Numbered from the stretch's first letter, positions 4,274 through 33,873 are shown. The stretch is 64,000 nt of DNA from an uncultured archaeon (GCA_964458565.1 CAYWJO010000003.1:32001-96000), one strand, 5' to 3'. Numbers and translations are program-made. The notes: generated from the sequence alone by a model not told the origin.

Positions 4274-5662
4274 CTAGCTACTTCCTCCGAAGGTGATACC
4301 ACCTTTGGCAAAACGGACTTTTGGCCCTCCAGAACCTATGAAGGCCTCCTGACCTTTTCCACAACGTCCCACTTCCCATTCAAGATTCTCTTTAGAGATT
4401 CCAGTAATCTTAAACAGTGAATCTGTGGCAATTCCTGAAATCGACATATCGGTCAATGATCTTCCCAGTTCTCCGTTTACAATCTCATAGGCTTCTTGAA
4501 TACCAACTTGAAAACTAGCATTCATTTGTGCTTGTCCAGCGCGGAAATCAGCACAATAGTATCCGAAATCGATTCCTTCAAAGAGTTCTTCATCAGACAT
4601 ATCACCTGGTTCAATGTAGGTGTTTCGCATTCGGATTATGGGAGGATACAAGTAGCTTTCAGCGCGAGCACTTCCAGTCGGACGGTATCCTAATTTCTGA
4701 GCATATTCCCGATTGGTAAGTAATTCGACCAGAACTGAATCTTTGATAATCTCTACTCTGCTCGTAGGAACCCCTTCATCATCGAATTTACTCGTCCCCA
4801 TTAGACCTTCTAGAGTACCATCATCAGTCATATTTACTCCTTCAGCAGCAACAACCTCCCCTACCTTACCATTGAATGCACTATTTACATTCAAATCTGC
4901 TTCTGAGAGATGACCAAGCGCTTCATGAGCTAGAATTCCAATGACACGAGGACCAAAAATACAAGGGTATGAACCTGCTTTTGGCGAAACGCCTTCGAGC
5001 TGCAACGTCACACGCTCAGCTACTTTCTCACCGATATATTCAGGAGTAGCAAATTTATTCATATATTCCCAGCCTTGTTTTGACGAAGCCTCTTCATACC
5101 GTGCTGTAGTCAACCTAGTTCCTTCCTTCCCTGTAGCCCAAGGGTAAACCCAAACAAGGATACCAGATGATTGAAGATTCGTTCCATCAGAGGTTAGGAG
5201 ATATTTTGTAACAGAAGAAGTCCGAATACTCACTGTTACTGCAGTAATTCGTTTATCGTAATTTTGAACATGTTTGGTTAGTTTTGACATATATTCGATT
5301 TTTTCTTCAATAGGAACATGTCTTGGGTCGAGTTCAACATTAGTAGTCAGCTTAGATTCATGCGGTTTTATTTCAACAAGTTCAATCGGTTCTCTGCGAG
5401 TTGCAGCTGCAGCTTTTGCCATTGAACAGGCATCAACAACAGCTTGCTCCATATCAGCTAGGTTTCCTGTTGACACAAATCCCCATGCACCATCAACCAG
5501 AACACGAATAGCAACCCCTCGCTCTATTCGTTGTGTCAAGGCATTGATTCGTCCATCATCCATTTTGATGAATTCGATGAAACCGTCTTCACCTCGAGCT
5601 TCTATGTAACTCGCTCCAGCATTTTGTCCGGCTTCAATTGCAGTCTGTAATTTGTCAATCAA
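4274..5662 (-). CDS. tldD: TldD family metalloprotease
   Basis: HEALGHLSEAD metal motif, FDDEGV, RMRNTY, CGKGQ. Confidence 0.92.
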   Translation of the reverse strand: MIDKLQTAIEAGQNAGASYIEARGEDGFIEFIKMDDGRINALTQRIERGVAIRVLVDGAWGFVSTGNLADMEQAVVDACSMAKAAAATRREPIELVEIKPHESKLTTNVELDPRHVPIEEKIEYMSKLTKHVQNYDKRITAVTVSIRTSSVTKYLLTSDGTNLQSSGILVWVYPWATGKEGTRLTTARYEEASSKQGWEYMNKFATPEYIGEKVAERVTLQLEGVSPKAGSYPCIFGPRVIGILAHEALGHLSEADLNVNSAFNGKVGEVVAAEGVNMTDDGTLEGLMGTSKFDDEGVPTSRVEIIKDSVLVELLTNREYAQKLGYRPTGSARAESYLYPPIIRMRNTYIEPGDMSDEELFEGIDFGYYCADFRAGQAQMNASFQVGIQEAYEIVNGELGRSLTDMSISGIATDSLFKITGISKENLEWEVGRCGKGQEAFIGSGGPKVRFAKGGITFGGSS

Positions 5663-5767
5663 CTATATCTACTCCTAGGAAGCATGTGAATACGGGTAAT
5701 GCGAATTAATAGGCTTTTGTTTTCCTGTATCATATGTTGACCAAAAGGCCAAATACGATTCAGATAC

Positions 5768-7804
5768 ATGACAATCTGCTTGGCTATGAAAGAGATGGAG
5801 ATACCCCCTGAATTTGGTCATCTTCAGAATGACAAAGAAATTCCTTGGGACACGATTCTGAAAACTGCAAAGAAGAAAAGGGAAGAGGGGTCGCCTTATT
5901 TCACATCGATTACAGATATTGCAATTGAACTCGCAACTGATGAAAGTATGAAAGTAAATGGTAATGAGAAACTGATACGACTAGGTGTTGAATCCGCTCT
6001 TGTAAGAGGTCGACTTGCTGAGGCGTTATTCCTCTCAACTGAAATTGAGAGTATTGAGATTCTGAGTTTAAGATCAATGGTACTTTTTGTCTTATCAGAC
6101 ATTGAAGCACTTACAACTACATTGAATCTAATGTCAGAATTAGTTACGGAGCATTCAGCCCCAACAGACAGAGTAAGATTAAGCACCGCTAAGGTATTTC
6201 TAGCTGCAGCAGAACGCGATACAAGTGTTATCACATGTGTTATGGAATTCGATAATCTACTTGAAAACAATCCTGAGCAGATAGAAGAACCAATTATTGA
6301 AACGATGTTCACATTATACGTCGTTGGATCATTGCTTCTTGAGGTAGGTCAATCACAACGCGCATTGCATATAGCAGATACGCTACAAAAGATGGCAAAG
6401 AAAAGAAATCACAGAATGGTAATAGCACTAGTAGAAAATCTTAGAGGAAATATCGCAAATCAGATGGGTGATTTTGAAGATGCTGAAGAACATTACTATC
6501 GCCTGCAAAAAATCAGTCAGGATTTAGAATTTCGATTAGGATTAGGAATGGCACTTAATAATTTAGGTGTCCTTCGATTGAACTCGCTTCGATTGGAAGA
6601 TGCTTTGAAGATGTTTCAAGAAGCGCATAAGCTCCTAGATATGGACCGGGGAAAACTCGTAAGTTTAACCAATATTGGTGAGATTGAAACCGTATTGGGG
6701 ATGTATAATGAGGCCATAATACACCTGAAGGAAGCAGTACGCTTAGAACAAAAAACAAGGAGTGATATTATTGAGGCGTATAGTTGGACCGTCATACTTT
6801 GTTCCCGTCTGGGTAAATTCAAAGATGCAATGAACAACCTGAAAATCTCTGAAGAGATATCAAGGCGATCAGAGAAACCAAAACAGATAGGAGCTCATTT
6901 GCATGCGAAGGGTATCTATCACGCCATGAAGGGAGAACGTTCGGAAGCGGTAGAAGCATTTTCAGCGGCTATTGAAGTTGCTAAAGAGAATAATATTTTC
7001 GAGGTACTAGTCAAGGTCAAGTTGGAGTTCGCTAGATTCTATCTTGAGGAGTATATGAAATCTAAGGAAGCGACGATTCTATCTGATGCCGCTTACCATC
7101 TAAATGACTTAATTCAAATTGCGAAAGAACAAGGACTTCAGTCATTGTATGCTGAAGCGCTTCTATTGAGAAGTGACATCCTTAGGATTGGAAAGAAGGA
7201 ACTCGAAGCTAAGGGAGACCTCGAACGTGTATTGAACATAGCAACTTTTCAAGAAAATACGGTTCTTGAGAAACAAGCAAACCAAAGATTAAGAATGCTC
7301 TCAACATCCGAGAAGGAAAAAGTTCTCGCTCAATCAGAGATGGTAAAATCACTCGATCGTGTTGCTGGATTCAAACCTGCAGGTCAACTAAAGAGTATTC
7401 CATTTCCAACATTGCACACGCTCCTCGCACTGAGTCGAAGGTCGGGTCTTCCAGAATTTGTGCATTCGTTTGGAGATAGTCCTCGTGTTGATAGTTCAAT
7501 TATCAGTGGATTCATCTCTGCAATAGCTTCATTCACAAATGAGTTCATGGGAGACAAAGGTCTCCTAAGGTCGATAAACCATGAGGGATTTGTGTTAATG
7601 ATGGAATATACTGCCTCTCGAATCATTACGTTGGTTGCGAGTGAAGAAACCTTCGAAATCAGATATCGGCTGCATGAATTTGCAGATCAATTTGATATGA
7701 AATATCCACCTGACGAGGATGAGGTAATTGAAACCTCAAAATACGATGGAGCAGAAGAGATAGTAGAAAATTTGTTTGCATTTGCTCTAAAAGGAGAAGA
7801 TTAG
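5768..7804 (+). CDS. TPR-repeat protein with C-terminal longin-like domain
   Basis: TPR signatures (ALNNLG, SLTNIG); C-terminus SGLP..HSF..DSSIISGFISAIASFTNEF..LRSINHEGF is typical of Asgard longin-like domains. Confidence 0.7.
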   Translation: MTICLAMKEMEIPPEFGHLQNDKEIPWDTILKTAKKKREEGSPYFTSITDIAIELATDESMKVNGNEKLIRLGVESALVRGRLAEALFLSTEIESIEILSLRSMVLFVLSDIEALTTTLNLMSELVTEHSAPTDRVRLSTAKVFLAAAERDTSVITCVMEFDNLLENNPEQIEEPIIETMFTLYVVGSLLLEVGQSQRALHIADTLQKMAKKRNHRMVIALVENLRGNIANQMGDFEDAEEHYYRLQKISQDLEFRLGLGMALNNLGVLRLNSLRLEDALKMFQEAHKLLDMDRGKLVSLTNIGEIETVLGMYNEAIIHLKEAVRLEQKTRSDIIEAYSWTVILCSRLGKFKDAMNNLKISEEISRRSEKPKQIGAHLHAKGIYHAMKGERSEAVEAFSAAIEVAKENNIFEVLVKVKLEFARFYLEEYMKSKEATILSDAAYHLNDLIQIAKEQGLQSLYAEALLLRSDILRIGKKELEAKGDLERVLNIATFQENTVLEKQANQRLRMLSTSEKEKVLAQSEMVKSLDRVAGFKPAGQLKSIPFPTLHTLLALSRRSGLPEFVHSFGDSPRVDSSIISGFISAIASFTNEFMGDKGLLRSINHEGFVLMMEYTASRIITLVASEETFEIRYRLHEFADQFDMKYPPDEDEVIETSKYDGAEEIVENLFAFALKGED

Positions 7805-27662: not shown

Positions 27663-28886
27663 TCACAACCATTCAAAAGCATCATTCCAAGTTACACTCG
27701 ACGCTGAATAAGGATTGAGATATATAGTCTTGAAGAACTCAACTTCTTTGCCCTTTGCTTTAGCTTTATCAAATGTTGGTTTTACAAATTGCGTACGACC
27801 TATATAGTAAGTAAAGATGTAAGGTGCCCAAAAGTTTAGACTTCCATCTGGATTCATTGGACGCATGAAAGCAATCGAATTCTTGGCATCATCTTCTGGC
27901 CTTATTTGTTTCTCAGCAATGTAACTTATCGTTTCCTCAATTGTGAAATTATCTCGATTCATGAAGAGAGCTGCATTGATAGACACCATCCTAGCTAGCT
28001 TATACAAGACATCCACAGCTTTTGTTGAAGGATCAGTATCTTTTAGTCCAAGAAATTCCTTGGCTGTATCGGCAGTACCTTCGGATATAACACATCGACC
28101 TGTGTGAAGTGGTACCACTGTTAAATCAAGCAAGTCATTATCCAGATAGGCTTTTTCTCTCCATAGATTCGAAACATGATGTTCGTATTCATGGTAGATA
28201 ACAGCAAGAAGGTTATGTTTATTCATGGGCCGATCAATGTTGAACTCATTCACAGAACGAAATCCCCCTTGATAGTAGTTGTATCCACTCCAAGGTTCAT
28301 CACGGACAGTGCGATACTCGACTCCATTATCAGTAACTTCAGTACCCATGTACTTGTAGATGTTCTCTCTAAACTGATTAGCAACTTCTTTTGATTTGGG
28401 TTGCAGCTGATTCAGAATCACATCTTTCAAAGCTTCACCCCTCACCTCTCCTTCAGCCCTGAATCTAGTAATTCTATCTTCAAGAGACCCATCCATATAG
28501 GACAGTGCCTCATCAACCTCAATATGTGCATCCTCAATTTCCTTCTCTGAGAATTCTTGAAGTTTGATACTAAATAGATTTTCAACAAGTTCAGTATATG
28601 GAATTTCCTCACCACTCAACCAGTCGACGACAACCTTAATGGAATTTACCTCACCGATTATACACTTTTTACGAAGCTCTGGTGTAACTTCATCTAGATC
28701 ATCAATCAAGGACGAAAGATTTCTTGATATTTCTTCAGCAGGTAGTCCAGTTGCTTGCTTCTCTGGAGATAAATCATCAGGTCCAAAATACGCATCAACT
28801 AGTGGGATTCCAGTTACTTTTTTGGTGAAGTTACTTGCTTCTCCACAGAGTCTTACGTATCGCTCTAAGGTGTCCATTGAAATCAA
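27663..28886 (-). CDS. Zincin-like (HExxH) metallopeptidase, DUF885-like
   Basis: HEYEHH with downstream ISEG third-ligand motif; VDAYFGP N-terminus; YIFTYYIG. Confidence 0.65.
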   Translation of the reverse strand: MISMDTLERYVRLCGEASNFTKKVTGIPLVDAYFGPDDLSPEKQATGLPAEEISRNLSSLIDDLDEVTPELRKKCIIGEVNSIKVVVDWLSGEEIPYTELVENLFSIKLQEFSEKEIEDAHIEVDEALSYMDGSLEDRITRFRAEGEVRGEALKDVILNQLQPKSKEVANQFRENIYKYMGTEVTDNGVEYRTVRDEPWSGYNYYQGGFRSVNEFNIDRPMNKHNLLAVIYHEYEHHVSNLWREKAYLDNDLLDLTVVPLHTGRCVISEGTADTAKEFLGLKDTDPSTKAVDVLYKLARMVSINAALFMNRDNFTIEETISYIAEKQIRPEDDAKNSIAFMRPMNPDGSLNFWAPYIFTYYIGRTQFVKPTFDKAKAKGKEVEFFKTIYLNPYSASSVTWNDAFEWL

Positions 28887-28936: not shown

Positions 28937-29692
28937 CTAAGCTCGAATACTGAATGTTGCCCATTTATTCTCAGTCCCATCCTTATTACACAAAGTGAAT
29001 GTAGCATCTTCCCTTGTCAACTCGATTCTTGTATGAAGCTGGGATGTTGCACCTCGAATTCGTCTTGATAGCAGGGTTCCAGTTGTGCAGAATATTATAT
29101 CATTGAGACGCCAAATCCACGGGACGTGACGATGGCCACTCAAAACAAGAGAGCATCCTGAATCATCAAGAACTCCCAAAACATCACCGGCATCTTCGAG
29201 AACATTGTGTTCTCGCCCTGTATGAGGGACCGGTAGGAGATGATGATGTAATGCAAGAATACGAATCTTGTCCTTAGCCCTACCAAATAGGTCCTTGATT
29301 TGAGGATATCTTTCACGACCTAGGTGACCAGCATCATTGTCAGGCTCAGCGGTGTCAGCACCATATAGAACGATGCTCTCATCTTCGAATATCTTGAAAC
29401 GTTCGCCAAATAGTTTCTCGAAATGAATAGAACCATAATTTCGCTCATCATGGTTACCAGGAATTATGACTGTTGGGAGATTGAATCCGTCAATACCCCT
29501 CTGGAAGTATTCGTACTCGTCCTTTAATCCTTCACTTGTCAAATCGCCGGTAATTACTAAGAGAGGTGAAATACAATCACTAGCTGTTTTTTCAATCTTG
29601 TCCAGAATATCACGGAAGTCCTCAATCGTGACACCGTATTCTCCAACATGAATATCACTCATATGAAAAATAGTTTTCACGATTTTGCCCAA
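28937..29692 (-). CDS. Calcineurin-like metallophosphoesterase (Icc/CpdA type)
   Basis: SDIH, TGDL, PGNHD, HHH and SGHRH motifs. Confidence 0.9.
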   Translation of the reverse strand: MGKIVKTIFHMSDIHVGEYGVTIEDFRDILDKIEKTASDCISPLLVITGDLTSEGLKDEYEYFQRGIDGFNLPTVIIPGNHDERNYGSIHFEKLFGERFKIFEDESIVLYGADTAEPDNDAGHLGRERYPQIKDLFGRAKDKIRILALHHHLLPVPHTGREHNVLEDAGDVLGVLDDSGCSLVLSGHRHVPWIWRLNDIIFCTTGTLLSRRIRGATSQLHTRIELTREDATFTLCNKDGTENKWATFSIRA

Positions 29693-31870
29693 CTATCTTC
29701 CGCCTCCGGACACACAGGCACTATGACATGCACTGTGACAAGCAGAGTGACATACGCAAGCACTATGGCATGCACTATGGCAAGCTGAATGGCAAGCATC
29801 GTGTGATACACAGGCACTATGACATGCATCATGGGATACACATCTACTTGTTCCTTCGATGATTGGTTTCAAAGGTTCACTGATAATCTGACCTACTCCA
29901 TTTACTACATCACCAATAGTGTTGGTAACATTGCCAATAATCTGGGATGTAGTAGAGGCTATGTCACCGACGGCACGACCAACACCATCCACGGCATGGC
30001 CTGTTGCAGTGGAAAGATCCTGAAACCACTGTGGAATCTGGGGCGTACCGAAAGATGGTCCAGGGTCTCTAAAGACCCGACCGATATCACGATCATGCCT
30101 TGGGTGCATATAGATCCAATACCAAGCCCACCCATATGTACGATATGGTCTGGTGAAGTAGTACTCTGTGCGACCGTCAACAGTGGGATTGGATGCCAAT
30201 TCGTCCCATGCACCATCAACCATCTCTTCATGATGTTCTTTGGTTGCCTCGAAATCAGCATCCCAGGATTTCTCTTGCACCTTATTGGCTATCTCTTCAA
30301 TCATGTCTTCAAGTAATTCTGGGTCTAGTTCATCGTCCTTTATTGCATCAACAAGCAGTTGCTCATAGTATGTGAGTTCTTCAAGTTTGATTCCGGTATC
30401 TGAAAGTTTCAAGGGATCAGTAGAGATGACCCGTACAGTACCTTTTTTCACACAGGACATGAGTATCATAGAAACTAATTTTTGTCTGCTCGTGTTCACG
30501 AAAAATGCAGATTCAACGGGGTCTAAATCTGCAACTGTACCTGGAGTCCCGTAAGTTTCAATCCCAATCTCAGGACTTGTATATCCTGTCGTTGTATCGG
30601 TTTTTTCCCATTTTGCACCATATGGATTGACTACACGTTTGTAGGTGGTATAAATCAATGCGAGTAACAGACTCCCACCGATTCCAAAGACAATGAGGAG
30701 AGTCAAAGTATCAGCATCAATCAGAGGTGGAATGAACTCAGTCACATAAATATCGACAGTAAAACCGATCCAATCACTGAAATTGAGATTCGAAGCGGAG
30801 ATGACAACTCCAATTGGGATTATCTCAGGTACATTTGCTGGAAGAATCATGAATTCCAATTCTCTTGACTCTCCTGCGATTAAATCACCGATGTTTGTTG
30901 GATCAGAACCAGAAAGGAGTGTAAGGTTCTCTGGAATAGTCAGGTCTACAACAACATCTTCAAGGGTATCATCTCCAAAATTGAAGACATTGAATGATAG
31001 TATGAATTCTTCATCTGCATATGCATTGATTTGATAGCTTGAAATTGAATATCCGATAACGCCAGGTTCAATGAAAGGTGCGTAAAATGTCCAATTAGTG
31101 TAATGCCAAACACGAAAGTGGTCGTACGCGTCAAGGGAATTATGTGCGAGAACAACTGTGAAGTATCGAGGACTTGCTCCGGAATTGAAGGGATAGGCGA
31201 GTAATTCTTCATAATCGTATTCAACTTGTACAGTGTGTGGTTGATTCCAGATGCCTCTCTCTGTGTCTTCAACATATCCAGCGTATGCTGCACCTGAAGC
31301 ATTTATACCATGGTCGAGTGAAATCCATGAGGGATCCATCTCAATTGGATAGATTACTTGAACCTGCTCATAATCAATAGGGTGATCCCATTCAACAGGA
31401 GCCCAATTGAAGACTCCCAAATCACCATAAGTTGTACTTGTTGTTTTCACTATTATCCGTTCTGTGCTGAAGTATCCGAATACTACCTGAACAGTATCAC
31501 CGGTTTGCGCCCTATCGGGGTCATCCATAACATAAGGCTCAGACCAATCTAGGTAAAACCCACCGCCGTATGGATCGCGATCCAGAGTTTTACGGTTTCC
31601 ATCAACGATTGCATATGCTCTACTCGTATCATATTGGTAATTCTCCTGAATACCCTCGATAAAGAGACCTCCCATTGAACCACTCGTTACGGTAAGTGTA
31701 ATCCAATATGTGACATTGATTCGACCATTTGGCATGACGACAACGTCAACATACACACTTTCAAGATCATATGCAAGATCCTGACTCAGAACAGGATTAG
31801 CATATGTACACGGAATCAATGTCAAGAGAAAGACGAACGCAATTACAGTTTTCATGTGTAGATATCTCAT
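29693..31870 (-). CDS. DUF2207-like single-pass membrane protein with Ig-like domain and C-terminal Cys/His repeat; candidate radical-SAM substrate
   Basis: Signal peptide; YDLESVYVDVVVMPNGRINVTY; CARDB-like domain; TM; LDPVESA..SCVKKG..LTYYEQLL; tail CVSHDACHSA...CVSGGGR. Confidence 0.75.
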   Translation of the reverse strand: MRYLHMKTVIAFVFLLTLIPCTYANPVLSQDLAYDLESVYVDVVVMPNGRINVTYWITLTVTSGSMGGLFIEGIQENYQYDTSRAYAIVDGNRKTLDRDPYGGGFYLDWSEPYVMDDPDRAQTGDTVQVVFGYFSTERIIVKTTSTTYGDLGVFNWAPVEWDHPIDYEQVQVIYPIEMDPSWISLDHGINASGAAYAGYVEDTERGIWNQPHTVQVEYDYEELLAYPFNSGASPRYFTVVLAHNSLDAYDHFRVWHYTNWTFYAPFIEPGVIGYSISSYQINAYADEEFILSFNVFNFGDDTLEDVVVDLTIPENLTLLSGSDPTNIGDLIAGESRELEFMILPANVPEIIPIGVVISASNLNFSDWIGFTVDIYVTEFIPPLIDADTLTLLIVFGIGGSLLLALIYTTYKRVVNPYGAKWEKTDTTTGYTSPEIGIETYGTPGTVADLDPVESAFFVNTSRQKLVSMILMSCVKKGTVRVISTDPLKLSDTGIKLEELTYYEQLLVDAIKDDELDPELLEDMIEEIANKVQEKSWDADFEATKEHHEEMVDGAWDELASNPTVDGRTEYYFTRPYRTYGWAWYWIYMHPRHDRDIGRVFRDPGPSFGTPQIPQWFQDLSTATGHAVDGVGRAVGDIASTTSQIIGNVTNTIGDVVNGVGQIISEPLKPIIEGTSRCVSHDACHSACVSHDACHSACHSACHSACVCHSACHSACHSACVSGGGR
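29696..29842 (-). repeat. Coding repeat: 7x CHSA and 2x CVSHDA (11 Cys, 9 His in 49 aa)
   Basis: Read directly from the translation; units use varied synonymous codons. Confidence 0.95.
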
Positions 31871-32445: not shown

Positions 32446-33873
32446 ATGACGATGTATCCTCTAAATTACGACTATACATTAGACGATCTTAAGTGGATAC
32501 CAAAATTTATTGAAGAAGTCAAAGACTACTTCTTTGCTCGACCTGAAGACAACCTTCTCATTTTACGTCCGAACAAAGTCATGCATCTTAATGAAACCGG
32601 AATGAGGATGCTAAAGTTATTACTGGATGGTAATTCTCTAGAGGCTGTTGTCGATTATTTCATCAAAAACCACCGAGCCGACCAGCAAACTGTTCTCAAT
32701 GACATTGCTGCGTTTGTTAATGATTTGAGAAACATGGTTTCAGGAAATCAAAATATCTATTCATATCAAACAGCCAAAATTATGCCCTTTGGTGAGAAAC
32801 CAATAAATTACCCAGTTTTGAGTGAAATCGCTTTGACTTATCGATGCAACAACAAATGCCGATTTTGCTATGCATACTCACCATATCGGGAATCCAATGA
32901 GATGAGTACTGAACAGGTCAAGAGAATCATCGATATCATTGTTGATGATGCGCATGTTCCTAGTCTCTCGTTTACCGGAGGTGAGCCCACTCTCAGGCAT
33001 GATCTTTTTGAACTGATAGAATATGGTCGTTCCAAGGGATTGCGAGTCAACCTGATAACCAATGGACGTAAATGTAGTGATTCGAATTATATACAGCGTT
33101 TGGTCGATGCAGGGTTGAACAGTGCCCAAGTCTCAATTGAAGGGCCTGATGCTCTTACACATGATGCAATAGTAGAGATACCTGGTGCATTTGACCAAAC
33201 GGTTCAAGGTATTAGGAATCTTCGACAAACCGACATCTATACGCATTGTAACACTACAATTTGTAAACCAAATGTCGATAAACTTGAAGAACTAGTTGAT
33301 TTTCACGCAGATGAGCTTGGATTATCATACTTCAGTATGAACATGGTCATCTACACAGGAACTGCTGCTAAGCTGCGAGATGAAATGGAAATAACCTTCT
33401 CGGAAATTGGAAGCATTGTAAGACGAGTAAAGAAACGAGCTAATAAGAAGGGGATCCAATTTGTATGGTACGCCCCAACACCAACATGTCTATTCAATCC
33501 CATAGCACATGGACTTGGAGCAAAACAGTGTGCAGCCTGTGATGGACTCTTATCTGTTGATGCAGAAGGCGGTCTCCTCCCGTGTTCTTCATTTAGCGAA
33601 CCCGTAGGAAATCTACTAGAAGAAGGATTTGAAAAAGTTTGGAACAACAGAGCTGCTAAATTCTGGAGAAGTAAATCATATGCACCAGAAGGATGCCAGC
33701 AGTGCAAAGAATTCGATTACTGCTACGGAGCTTGTCCGTTATACTGGGATGTTCATGGATTTGATGAGATTAAAAGTTACTGGCCTGAAAAGAGTCGAGT
33801 TGTATCAAAAATTGATCAAATGCGGCTAAATCTTCGAAGAAGAATCAAAGGTGATCAACACGGGATTACTTAG
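32446..33873 (+). CDS. PqqD/RRE-radical SAM-SPASM peptide maturase
   Basis: N-terminal RRE-like LNETG..LKLLLDG.SL..VV..F..DIAAFVNDL; CNNKCRFC; FTGGEP; SPASM cysteines CAAC..LLPC..CQQC..YCYGACP. Confidence 0.9.
   Translation: MTMYPLNYDYTLDDLKWIPKFIEEVKDYFFARPEDNLLILRPNKVMHLNETGMRMLKLLLDGNSLEAVVDYFIKNHRADQQTVLNDIAAFVNDLRNMVSGNQNIYSYQTAKIMPFGEKPINYPVLSEIALTYRCNNKCRFCYAYSPYRESNEMSTEQVKRIIDIIVDDAHVPSLSFTGGEPTLRHDLFELIEYGRSKGLRVNLITNGRKCSDSNYIQRLVDAGLNSAQVSIEGPDALTHDAIVEIPGAFDQTVQGIRNLRQTDIYTHCNTTICKPNVDKLEELVDFHADELGLSYFSMNMVIYTGTAAKLRDEMEITFSEIGSIVRRVKKRANKKGIQFVWYAPTPTCLFNPIAHGLGAKQCAACDGLLSVDAEGGLLPCSSFSEPVGNLLEEGFEKVWNNRAAKFWRSKSYAPEGCQQCKEFDYCYGACPLYWDVHGFDEIKSYWPEKSRVVSKIDQMRLNLRRRIKGDQHGIT

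Follow-up and report, generated by a model that had tools for sequence, protein, structure and literature searches.

The 64,000-nucleotide (nt) stretch of DNA from an uncultured archaeon analyzed here (GCA_964458565.1 CAYWJO010000003.1:32001-96000; 'the window', with positions counted from its first letter) encodes a 725-amino acid (aa) single-pass membrane protein, P0001, that ends in a dense Cys/His repeat, the tail. Divergent to its gene lies the gene of P0002, a radical S-adenosylmethionine (SAM) enzyme with a SPASM domain and an RRE, the recognition element of pathways for ribosomally made, post-translationally modified peptides (RiPPs). We found that the tail peptide is under extreme purifying selection and that tail and enzyme are genetically coupled in archaea and bacteria. 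With slightly more confidence than doubt, we propose that this co-inherited enzyme has the tail as its built-in substrate ('core peptide') and modifies it in cis. A previous sequence-only reading of the tail, which suggested His-to-Ala crosslinks, Cys thioethers or metal binding, is partly supported as a whole.

A repeated H-x-A-C grammar under purifying selection

The segment 29693-29842 (minus strand) comprises the stop codon and the last 49 codons of the P0001 open reading frame (ORF; 29693..31870, minus strand). The tail itself (residues 677-725; 29696..29842, minus strand) reads C-VSHDA-C-HSA-C-VSHDA-C-HSA-C-HSA-C-HSA-C-V-C-HSA-C-HSA-C-HSA-C-VSGGGR, with nine H-[S/D]-A-C units, 11 Cys and the end CVSGGGR. 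As the sequence-only reading had stated, all nine His lie in H-x-A (HSA seven times and HDA twice, Cys following directly each time), and the Cys residues are mostly four residues apart (7 of 10; successive spacings of 6, 4, 6, 4, 4, 4, 2, 4, 4 and 4). Only two more Cys occur in the 673 residues of P0001 counted outside the tail, and the repeat is far beyond chance. The tail also includes two CX3D motifs (C-V-S-H-D). Its seven CHSA units are written in six distinct 12-nt codings with a mean identity of 9 of 12 bases, among them the three codon sets that had been quoted as signs of synonymous diversification, and Tandem Repeats Finder (TRF) describes the DNA as 12-nt arrays matching only 78-80%. 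When the tail alone was compared with NCBIfam, no model matched at E ≤ 10. AlphaFold2 (AF2) gave no confident fold for it with 19 aligned sequences, nor with 90 (predicted local distance difference test score, pLDDT, 46-53 in the latter case).

P0001 homologs were found in 63 of 87 genomes of Thorarchaeia, a group of Asgard archaea. Across 33 Thorarchaeia tails, 46 of the last 51 positions are invariant, and every tail codon uses 2-6 synonymous codons, with Ser switching between AGY and TCN; the remainder of the protein is only 46-62% identical. In this group the tail peptide is invariant, its synonymous sites are saturated and its repeat number is fixed, and therefore selection acts on the exact peptide. 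This purifying selection is extreme. The earlier suggestion of protein-level selection rather than recent slippage thus gains strong support, and slippage or a neutral repeat is ruled out by the saturated synonymous change with an invariant peptide in the 33 genomes. One tail-gene homolog (L022; G047:C156) has an in-frame TAG in the amphipathic pre-tail segment, at a position occupied by E or Q in relatives; the reading frame of the tail is intact past the TAG, at which the NCBI protein (P0004) stops. A recent nonsense mutation, an error in sequencing or read-through could account for the TAG.

Among 1.84 billion representative proteins, a profile search found 708 relatives of P0001, whose C-termini form four classes. 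Class 1 is (C-H-x-A)n with the end C-V-S-G-G-x-x, class 2, the commonest, reads C-A-C-A-C-A-C-A-G-C-A-C-A-C-A-G-G-G-R, class 3 is a C-V/C-A variant, and class 4 consists of hybrids such as P0065. In the alignment, Ala-Cys and the Gly-Gly end are common to all tail classes. The sister-class tails, (Cys-Ala)n-GGGR, have no His and a two-residue Cys spacing, and are without any aromatic residue (CACACACAGCACACAGGGR). One metagenome homolog from the European Nucleotide Archive (P0005) ends in LSLIHI, which is what a Nextera adapter encodes, so that this record is cut by the adapter and not truly tail-less.

Among 29 unbiased representatives, 193 of about 213 His lie in H-x-A. At least 120 stretches matching the DNA pattern CHDACHxACH were found in the genomes of more than 20 bacterial phyla, and the isolate Desulfobulbus alkaliphilus DSM 24258 carries the cassette (L123). 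Because this pattern itself prescribes about two of the units in each bacterial tail, the bacterial sample is partly biased to tails with CHDACHxACH. We assembled 77 non-identical CHxA-class tails from bacteria and non-Thorarchaeia Asgard archaea, in which 601 of 617 His are in H-x-A-C, with Ser (69%) or Asp (20%) most often at x, and Cys spacing is four in 598 of 644 cases. Repeat number, a comparison that the sequence-only reading had proposed, is fixed in Thorarchaeia and ranges elsewhere from 3 to 10 units per tail (median 8 in the 77 tails). In tails with a spacing of five or six, the extra residues fall between Cys and His (C-VS-HDA-C, C-YV-HTA-C, C-FT-HSA-C) and never inside H-x-A-C; because of this placement, the conserved unit is H-x-A-C. 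The grammar of H-x-A and Cys spacing described from the window tail is thus kept in homologous tails, with the amendments that the unit is really H-x-A-C and that His is not needed family-wide; this conservation counts in favor of the sequence-only reading.

Genetic coupling of the tail to a radical SAM-SPASM enzyme

The enzyme gene (P0002; 32446..33873, plus strand) has Pfam matches to PqqD, the RRE domain (about 32560-32730; E = 1.5e-8), to the radical SAM core with its CxxxCxxC motif CNNKCRFC (about 32833-33303; Radical_SAM, E = 1.2e-25) and to SPASM (about 33529-33732; E = 4.4e-7), all on the plus strand. The PqqD match spans residues 39-95 at 35.3 bits (cut-off 23.4), and eight further Cys lie in the C-terminal part. 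Judged by these domains, the architecture is that of a peptide maturase (PqqD/RRE, CxxxCxxC and full SPASM). A Tyr stands right after CxxxCxxC, as does Y113 in StsB, while CteB has Phe; this is position 1 only of a six-residue catalytic-site profile (PMC10288494), and we draw no claim from it.

In the 87 Thorarchaeia genomes, tallies of tail gene and enzyme presence are identical in 13 of 16 genera, and whenever both genes are on one contig they are divergent neighbors with a conserved 136-aa gene between them. Among 400 Asgard genomes, the tail family is present in 132 and the enzyme in 131; family tallies are alike for the two (29/31, 11/22 with the same genomes, and 4/4), and about 20 families have neither. 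The enzyme adjoins the tail gene in 14 of 21 non-Thorarchaeia Asgard loci, and for the remaining seven it was found elsewhere in the genome in all five genomes tested. The bacterial loci, drawn from more than 20 phyla, number 79; in 74 the enzyme gene has the strand of the tail gene and lies directly downstream of it or overlaps it, and three of the five exceptions are cut off by the limit of the fetched sequence. In all 79 bacterial loci having a tail ORF, that ORF is a P0001 homolog, and no other Cys-rich or repeat ORF conserved in the cassette was found in the window or the bacterial loci. The tail is thus genetically coupled to the enzyme. One tail protein stands apart (L036; G058:C1:1231855-1234195): it has a different N-terminal part (780 aa in total) and no enzyme gene nearby or genome-wide at E ≤ 1e-60. 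Masked runs of N and paralogous membrane genes at this locus suggest a possible rearrangement or mis-assembly.

Enzymes linked to CHxA tails and those linked to (Cys-Ala)n tails are about 34% identical, and a tree of 74 enzymes separates the two groups with a support of 100. The Asgard CHxA enzymes are placed with their bacterial counterparts and not with Asgard (Cys-Ala)n enzymes, such that the tree follows tail class and not taxonomy. Since tail and enzyme genes are linked, we read this split as two cassette types rather than as independent co-evolution. Co-occurrence, adjacency and a tree following tail class together lend strong support to the link with a SPASM enzyme that had been drawn from the sequence alone. 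A second radical-SAM-like paralog adjoins the (Cys-Ala)n tail gene at L035:2-1231 (minus strand) in genome G001 and at G230:C572:2480-3700. The G001 paralog lacks CxxxCxxC (ITYRNNNSPIFSH) and so is a 'pseudo-rSAM', possibly a non-catalytic partner.

Candidate chemistry of the tail and alternative explanations

If the tail is the substrate of P0002, the membrane protein would place its C-terminal part in the cytoplasm, where the enzyme would dock on the pre-tail region and work along the H-x-A-C units, abstracting a hydrogen atom from a neighboring residue and closing one small ring per unit. The full-size protein would then retain a rigid C-terminus carrying multiple cross-links, which possibly binds metal. 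The varying copy number of 3-10 units resembles repeat-motif RiPP cores, and we also count the lack of a confident AF2 fold in favor of this proposal. Of the possible bonds, a Cys thioether is most likely, because Ala-Cys is the sole element shared with the His-less (Cys-Ala)n class and because the SPASM architecture and published work on PapB and CrpC also point there; a bond from His-C2 to Ala-C-beta of the HaaB type would be the main alternative for the CHxA class. Both chemistries named in the sequence-only reading have real precedents: HaaB links His-C2 to Ala-C-beta on an HAA motif (PMC11499958), and thioethers are formed by PapB (PMC10177961) and CrpC (PMC13692751).

The closest parallel is CrpA/CrpC of Methanococcus voltae (Dieter et al. 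2026, PMC13692751), which is likewise archaeal and in which CrpC, an RRE-radical SAM-SPASM enzyme, modifies a full-size substrate, the 28.8-kDa protein CrpA, with thioethers in its Cys-rich C-terminal repeats. The CrpA thioethers lie within short motifs (ACAGM, CAVD), with Cys before the acceptor, and the Crp cluster too has a small companion protein. In contrast, P0002 is in a different enzyme family from CrpC (51.6 bits, where TIGR04463 requires 525), and CrpA is described without a membrane anchor and with 17-residue repeats carrying C-x-x-Q/D, as opposed to the four-residue H-x-A-C on a single-pass membrane protein known here from sequence. PapB/PapA (freyrasin), CteB/SCIFF and StsB/StsA also pair a SPASM enzyme bearing an RRE with a repeated Cys motif. 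PapB forms six Cys-to-Asp thioethers in CX3D motifs (PMC10177961), of which the window tail has two, although bacterial CHxA-class tails have none; in PapB and Tte1186, the auxiliary cluster is bound by substrate Cys (PMC10177961). The StsA core CxCxC...GxGxG (PMC10288494) resembles the sister class CACACAGGGR. Substrates of these ranthipeptide and sactipeptide maturases are, however, small leader-bearing peptides, and P0002 is far below the cut-offs of their hidden Markov models.

The likeness to HaaA lies in the substrate motif, which is repeated and has His first and Ala third; unlike in HaaB/HaaA, the motif here is followed by Cys in every case, a protein tail is the putative substrate and the sister class lacks His. 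Short Cys/His repeats paired with a SPASM enzyme are also known in silico from NCBIfam/TIGRFAMs (Syntroph_Cxxx TIGR04117, ACGX TIGR04340 and the His-Xaa-Ser system with HxsC), yet their targets are small peptides, the motif here is H-x-A and not H-x-S, and no model reaches its cut-off on tail or enzyme. We rejected membership in TIGR04117, which gave no match at the tail and a single genome match elsewhere (12.8 bits, cut-off 50), and that of P0002 in the PapB, StsB, CrpC (TIGR04463), ACGX and Hxs families, all of which scored below cut-off (rSAM_ACGX 96.3 against 400 bits; HxsC 101.5 against 267.9). By analogy, the system would work like RiPP or Crp-type maturation, differing in enzyme clade, four-residue grammar and a membrane protein as substrate. 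A full-text literature search found no paper describing this tail-enzyme system.

Several observations weigh against the tail being a substrate. P0002 falls under every NCBIfam cut-off, including those of PapB (87.5 against 340 bits), StsB (97.3 against 625) and TIGR04463, and its best partial matches are the heme-pathway enzymes AhbD and NirJ2; a Pfam scan of a single bacterial enzyme (E ≤ 1e-3) detected no PqqD. In two Asgard families, tail gene and enzyme gene are not adjacent, and the enzyme tree is not independent proof, as co-inherited neighbors alone give congruent trees. Furthermore, the exact invariance of 46 residues exceeds what known repeat-core substrates usually show, while the tail is rich in classic metal ligands (Cys, His and Asp), and the C-x-C and C-x3-C strings resemble metallothionein. 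These last features would suit a tail that stays unmodified and binds metal or an Fe-S cluster in a metallothionein-like manner on a membrane sensor or handler, with the enzyme acting on another substrate or using the tail for docking, cluster or sulfur donation, or electron transfer. The composition of 11 Cys, nine His and two Asp within 49 residues fits such tails, C-A-C-A-C in the sister class is a typical C-x-C string, and the sampled lineages all look anaerobic. The CrpA/CrpC authors suggest that their system may itself bind metals (PMC13692751). On the other hand, the non-ligand Ser, Ala and Val are rarely invariant in metal-binding tails, yet are invariant here; nothing would explain the strict coupling, in genome content and in position, to a maturase-type enzyme with an RRE; the cassette conserves no gene for another substrate; and family-model scans of the tail found no metallothionein family match, nor does AF2 give a compact fold. 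We regard such an unmodified, metal-binding tail as rather improbable.

We assign a still smaller chance to a triceptide-type ring from His-C2 to Ala-C-beta in each H-x-A as the bond formed, with Cys left free for metal or for the auxiliary cluster of the enzyme. HaaB forms exactly that bond (PMC11499958), H-x-A holds nine of nine His here and 601 of 617 in relatives, and insertions precede His without ever entering H-x-A-C. Against it, the Cys are as invariant as the His, and the sister class, whose enzymes are about 34% identical, has no aromatic residue, so that such a ring cannot be the chemistry shared family-wide. A comparably slim prospect is that each H-x-A-C unit is doubly modified or has a dual role, with a His-Ala ring plus either a Cys thioether or a free Cys thiolate. 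That the tail is a low-complexity linker or a DNA-level feature (a slippage array, or the ribosome-binding site of the next gene) without specific protein function could draw on the 12-nt periodicity in TRF and on GGA-biased terminal Gly codons just 5' of the next gene's start, but the peptide is invariant despite saturated synonymous sites, and the grammar is kept across bacteria and archaea with differing downstream genes; we consider this explanation extremely unlikely.

The tail-bearing membrane protein, its gene neighborhood and wider significance

P0001 and ten distant relatives have no Pfam or NCBIfam family match, DUF2207 and DUF2207_C of Pfam included. The AF2 layout consists of an N-terminal signal/anchor helix, a beta-rich ectodomain, one membrane helix and then the C-terminal part with the tail. 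The ectodomain (residues ~31-377; 30740..31780, minus strand) is predicted to be an extracytoplasmic beta-sandwich (pLDDT 84-96) and is followed by a single transmembrane helix (residues 386-414; 30629..30715, minus strand), supported by the AF2 helix and by sequence. Lys/Arg residues after this helix would, by the positive-inside rule, place the C-terminal part in the cytoplasm. That part includes a winged-helix-like globular domain, predicted to be cytoplasmic (residues ~445-565; 30176..30538, minus strand; pLDDT 90-97 with the 90-sequence alignment), which is the most widely conserved part of the family and aligns across both tail classes. Between this domain and the tail (29843..30175, minus strand), an aromatic cluster precedes a small-residue segment with an 11-residue period, which runs up to EPLKP..TSR just before the tail, a motif nearly invariant in the Thorarchaeia alignment. 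AF2 models the region as helices at low confidence, and it is possibly a recognition ('leader-like') region.

The top Foldseek matches of the ectodomain (30740-31780) are to ribophorin I/Ost1 of the eukaryotic oligosaccharyltransferase (E = 5e-9, TM-scores only 0.19-0.29). Because the family is also bacterial, we do not take this likeness as a eukaryote-specific signature. Foldseek gave no significant match for the cytoplasmic part of P0001. For the winged-helix-like domain, the best VIA-align match was Vps74/GOLPH3 (Z 6.1, about 143 residues, rmsd (root mean square deviation) 4.5; next rows Z 4.4), and we rejected this as a fold name since the score is too weak. A language-model look-alike search in the ESM Atlas placed P0001 at a feature similarity of 0.95 to a cluster named DUF2207, which serves only as a lead toward a DUF2207-like protein. 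DUF2207 membrane proteins share the layout of ectodomain, membrane span, cytoplasmic domain and low-complexity C-terminal tail, although P0001 has no Pfam DUF2207 match; typical DUF2207 tails are Gly-rich and are not known to have a radical SAM partner.

The conserved 136-aa protein encoded between tail and enzyme genes (P0003; 31938..32348, minus strand) keeps its position in Thorarchaeia, and ORFs similar to it occur in eight bacterial loci; its search in the ESM Atlas was uninformative. On the other side of the tail gene, the TTG start of a metallophosphoesterase gene (28937..29692, minus strand) abuts the tail-gene stop, an arrangement kept in Thorarchaeia as well. The tail Gly codons are GGA-biased (29/33 and 17/33 Thorarchaeia tails), and a GGAGG-like sequence (29693-29710) lies just 5' of this TTG (29692), which would fit a ribosome-binding site of the metallophosphoesterase gene overlapping the end of the tail gene. 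A 407-aa protein with an HEYEH motif and no Pfam match (27663-28886, minus strand; 48% identical in genome G073) retains its place downstream of the metallophosphoesterase in Thorarchaeia and could be a peptidase acting on the system. In 44 bacterial loci, a third cassette gene follows the enzyme (for example L123:~5400-6426, plus strand); its product is a ~320-aa membrane protein matching nothing in Pfam or NCBIfam, and the window lacks this gene.

Almost everything known of radical SAM/SPASM maturases comes from small secreted peptides, and the first biochemical case that we found of such an enzyme cross-linking a large Cys-rich protein, through thioethers, dates from 2026. The substrate grammar is now defined as H-x-A-C in 3-10 copies with the end C-V-S-G-G on a full-size membrane protein, and it comes with an enzyme clade of its own and a sister class without His. 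This grammar could lead to new cross-link chemistry and to the purpose of a DUF2207-like receptor family common in anaerobes. Were the dual modification or dual role true, the cytoplasmic end of a membrane receptor would be a rigid, protein-borne, poly-cross-linked metal or redox cofactor. In that case it would also be a novel class of post-translational modification, carried out on an entire membrane protein and conserved both in Asgard archaea and in over 20 bacterial phyla.

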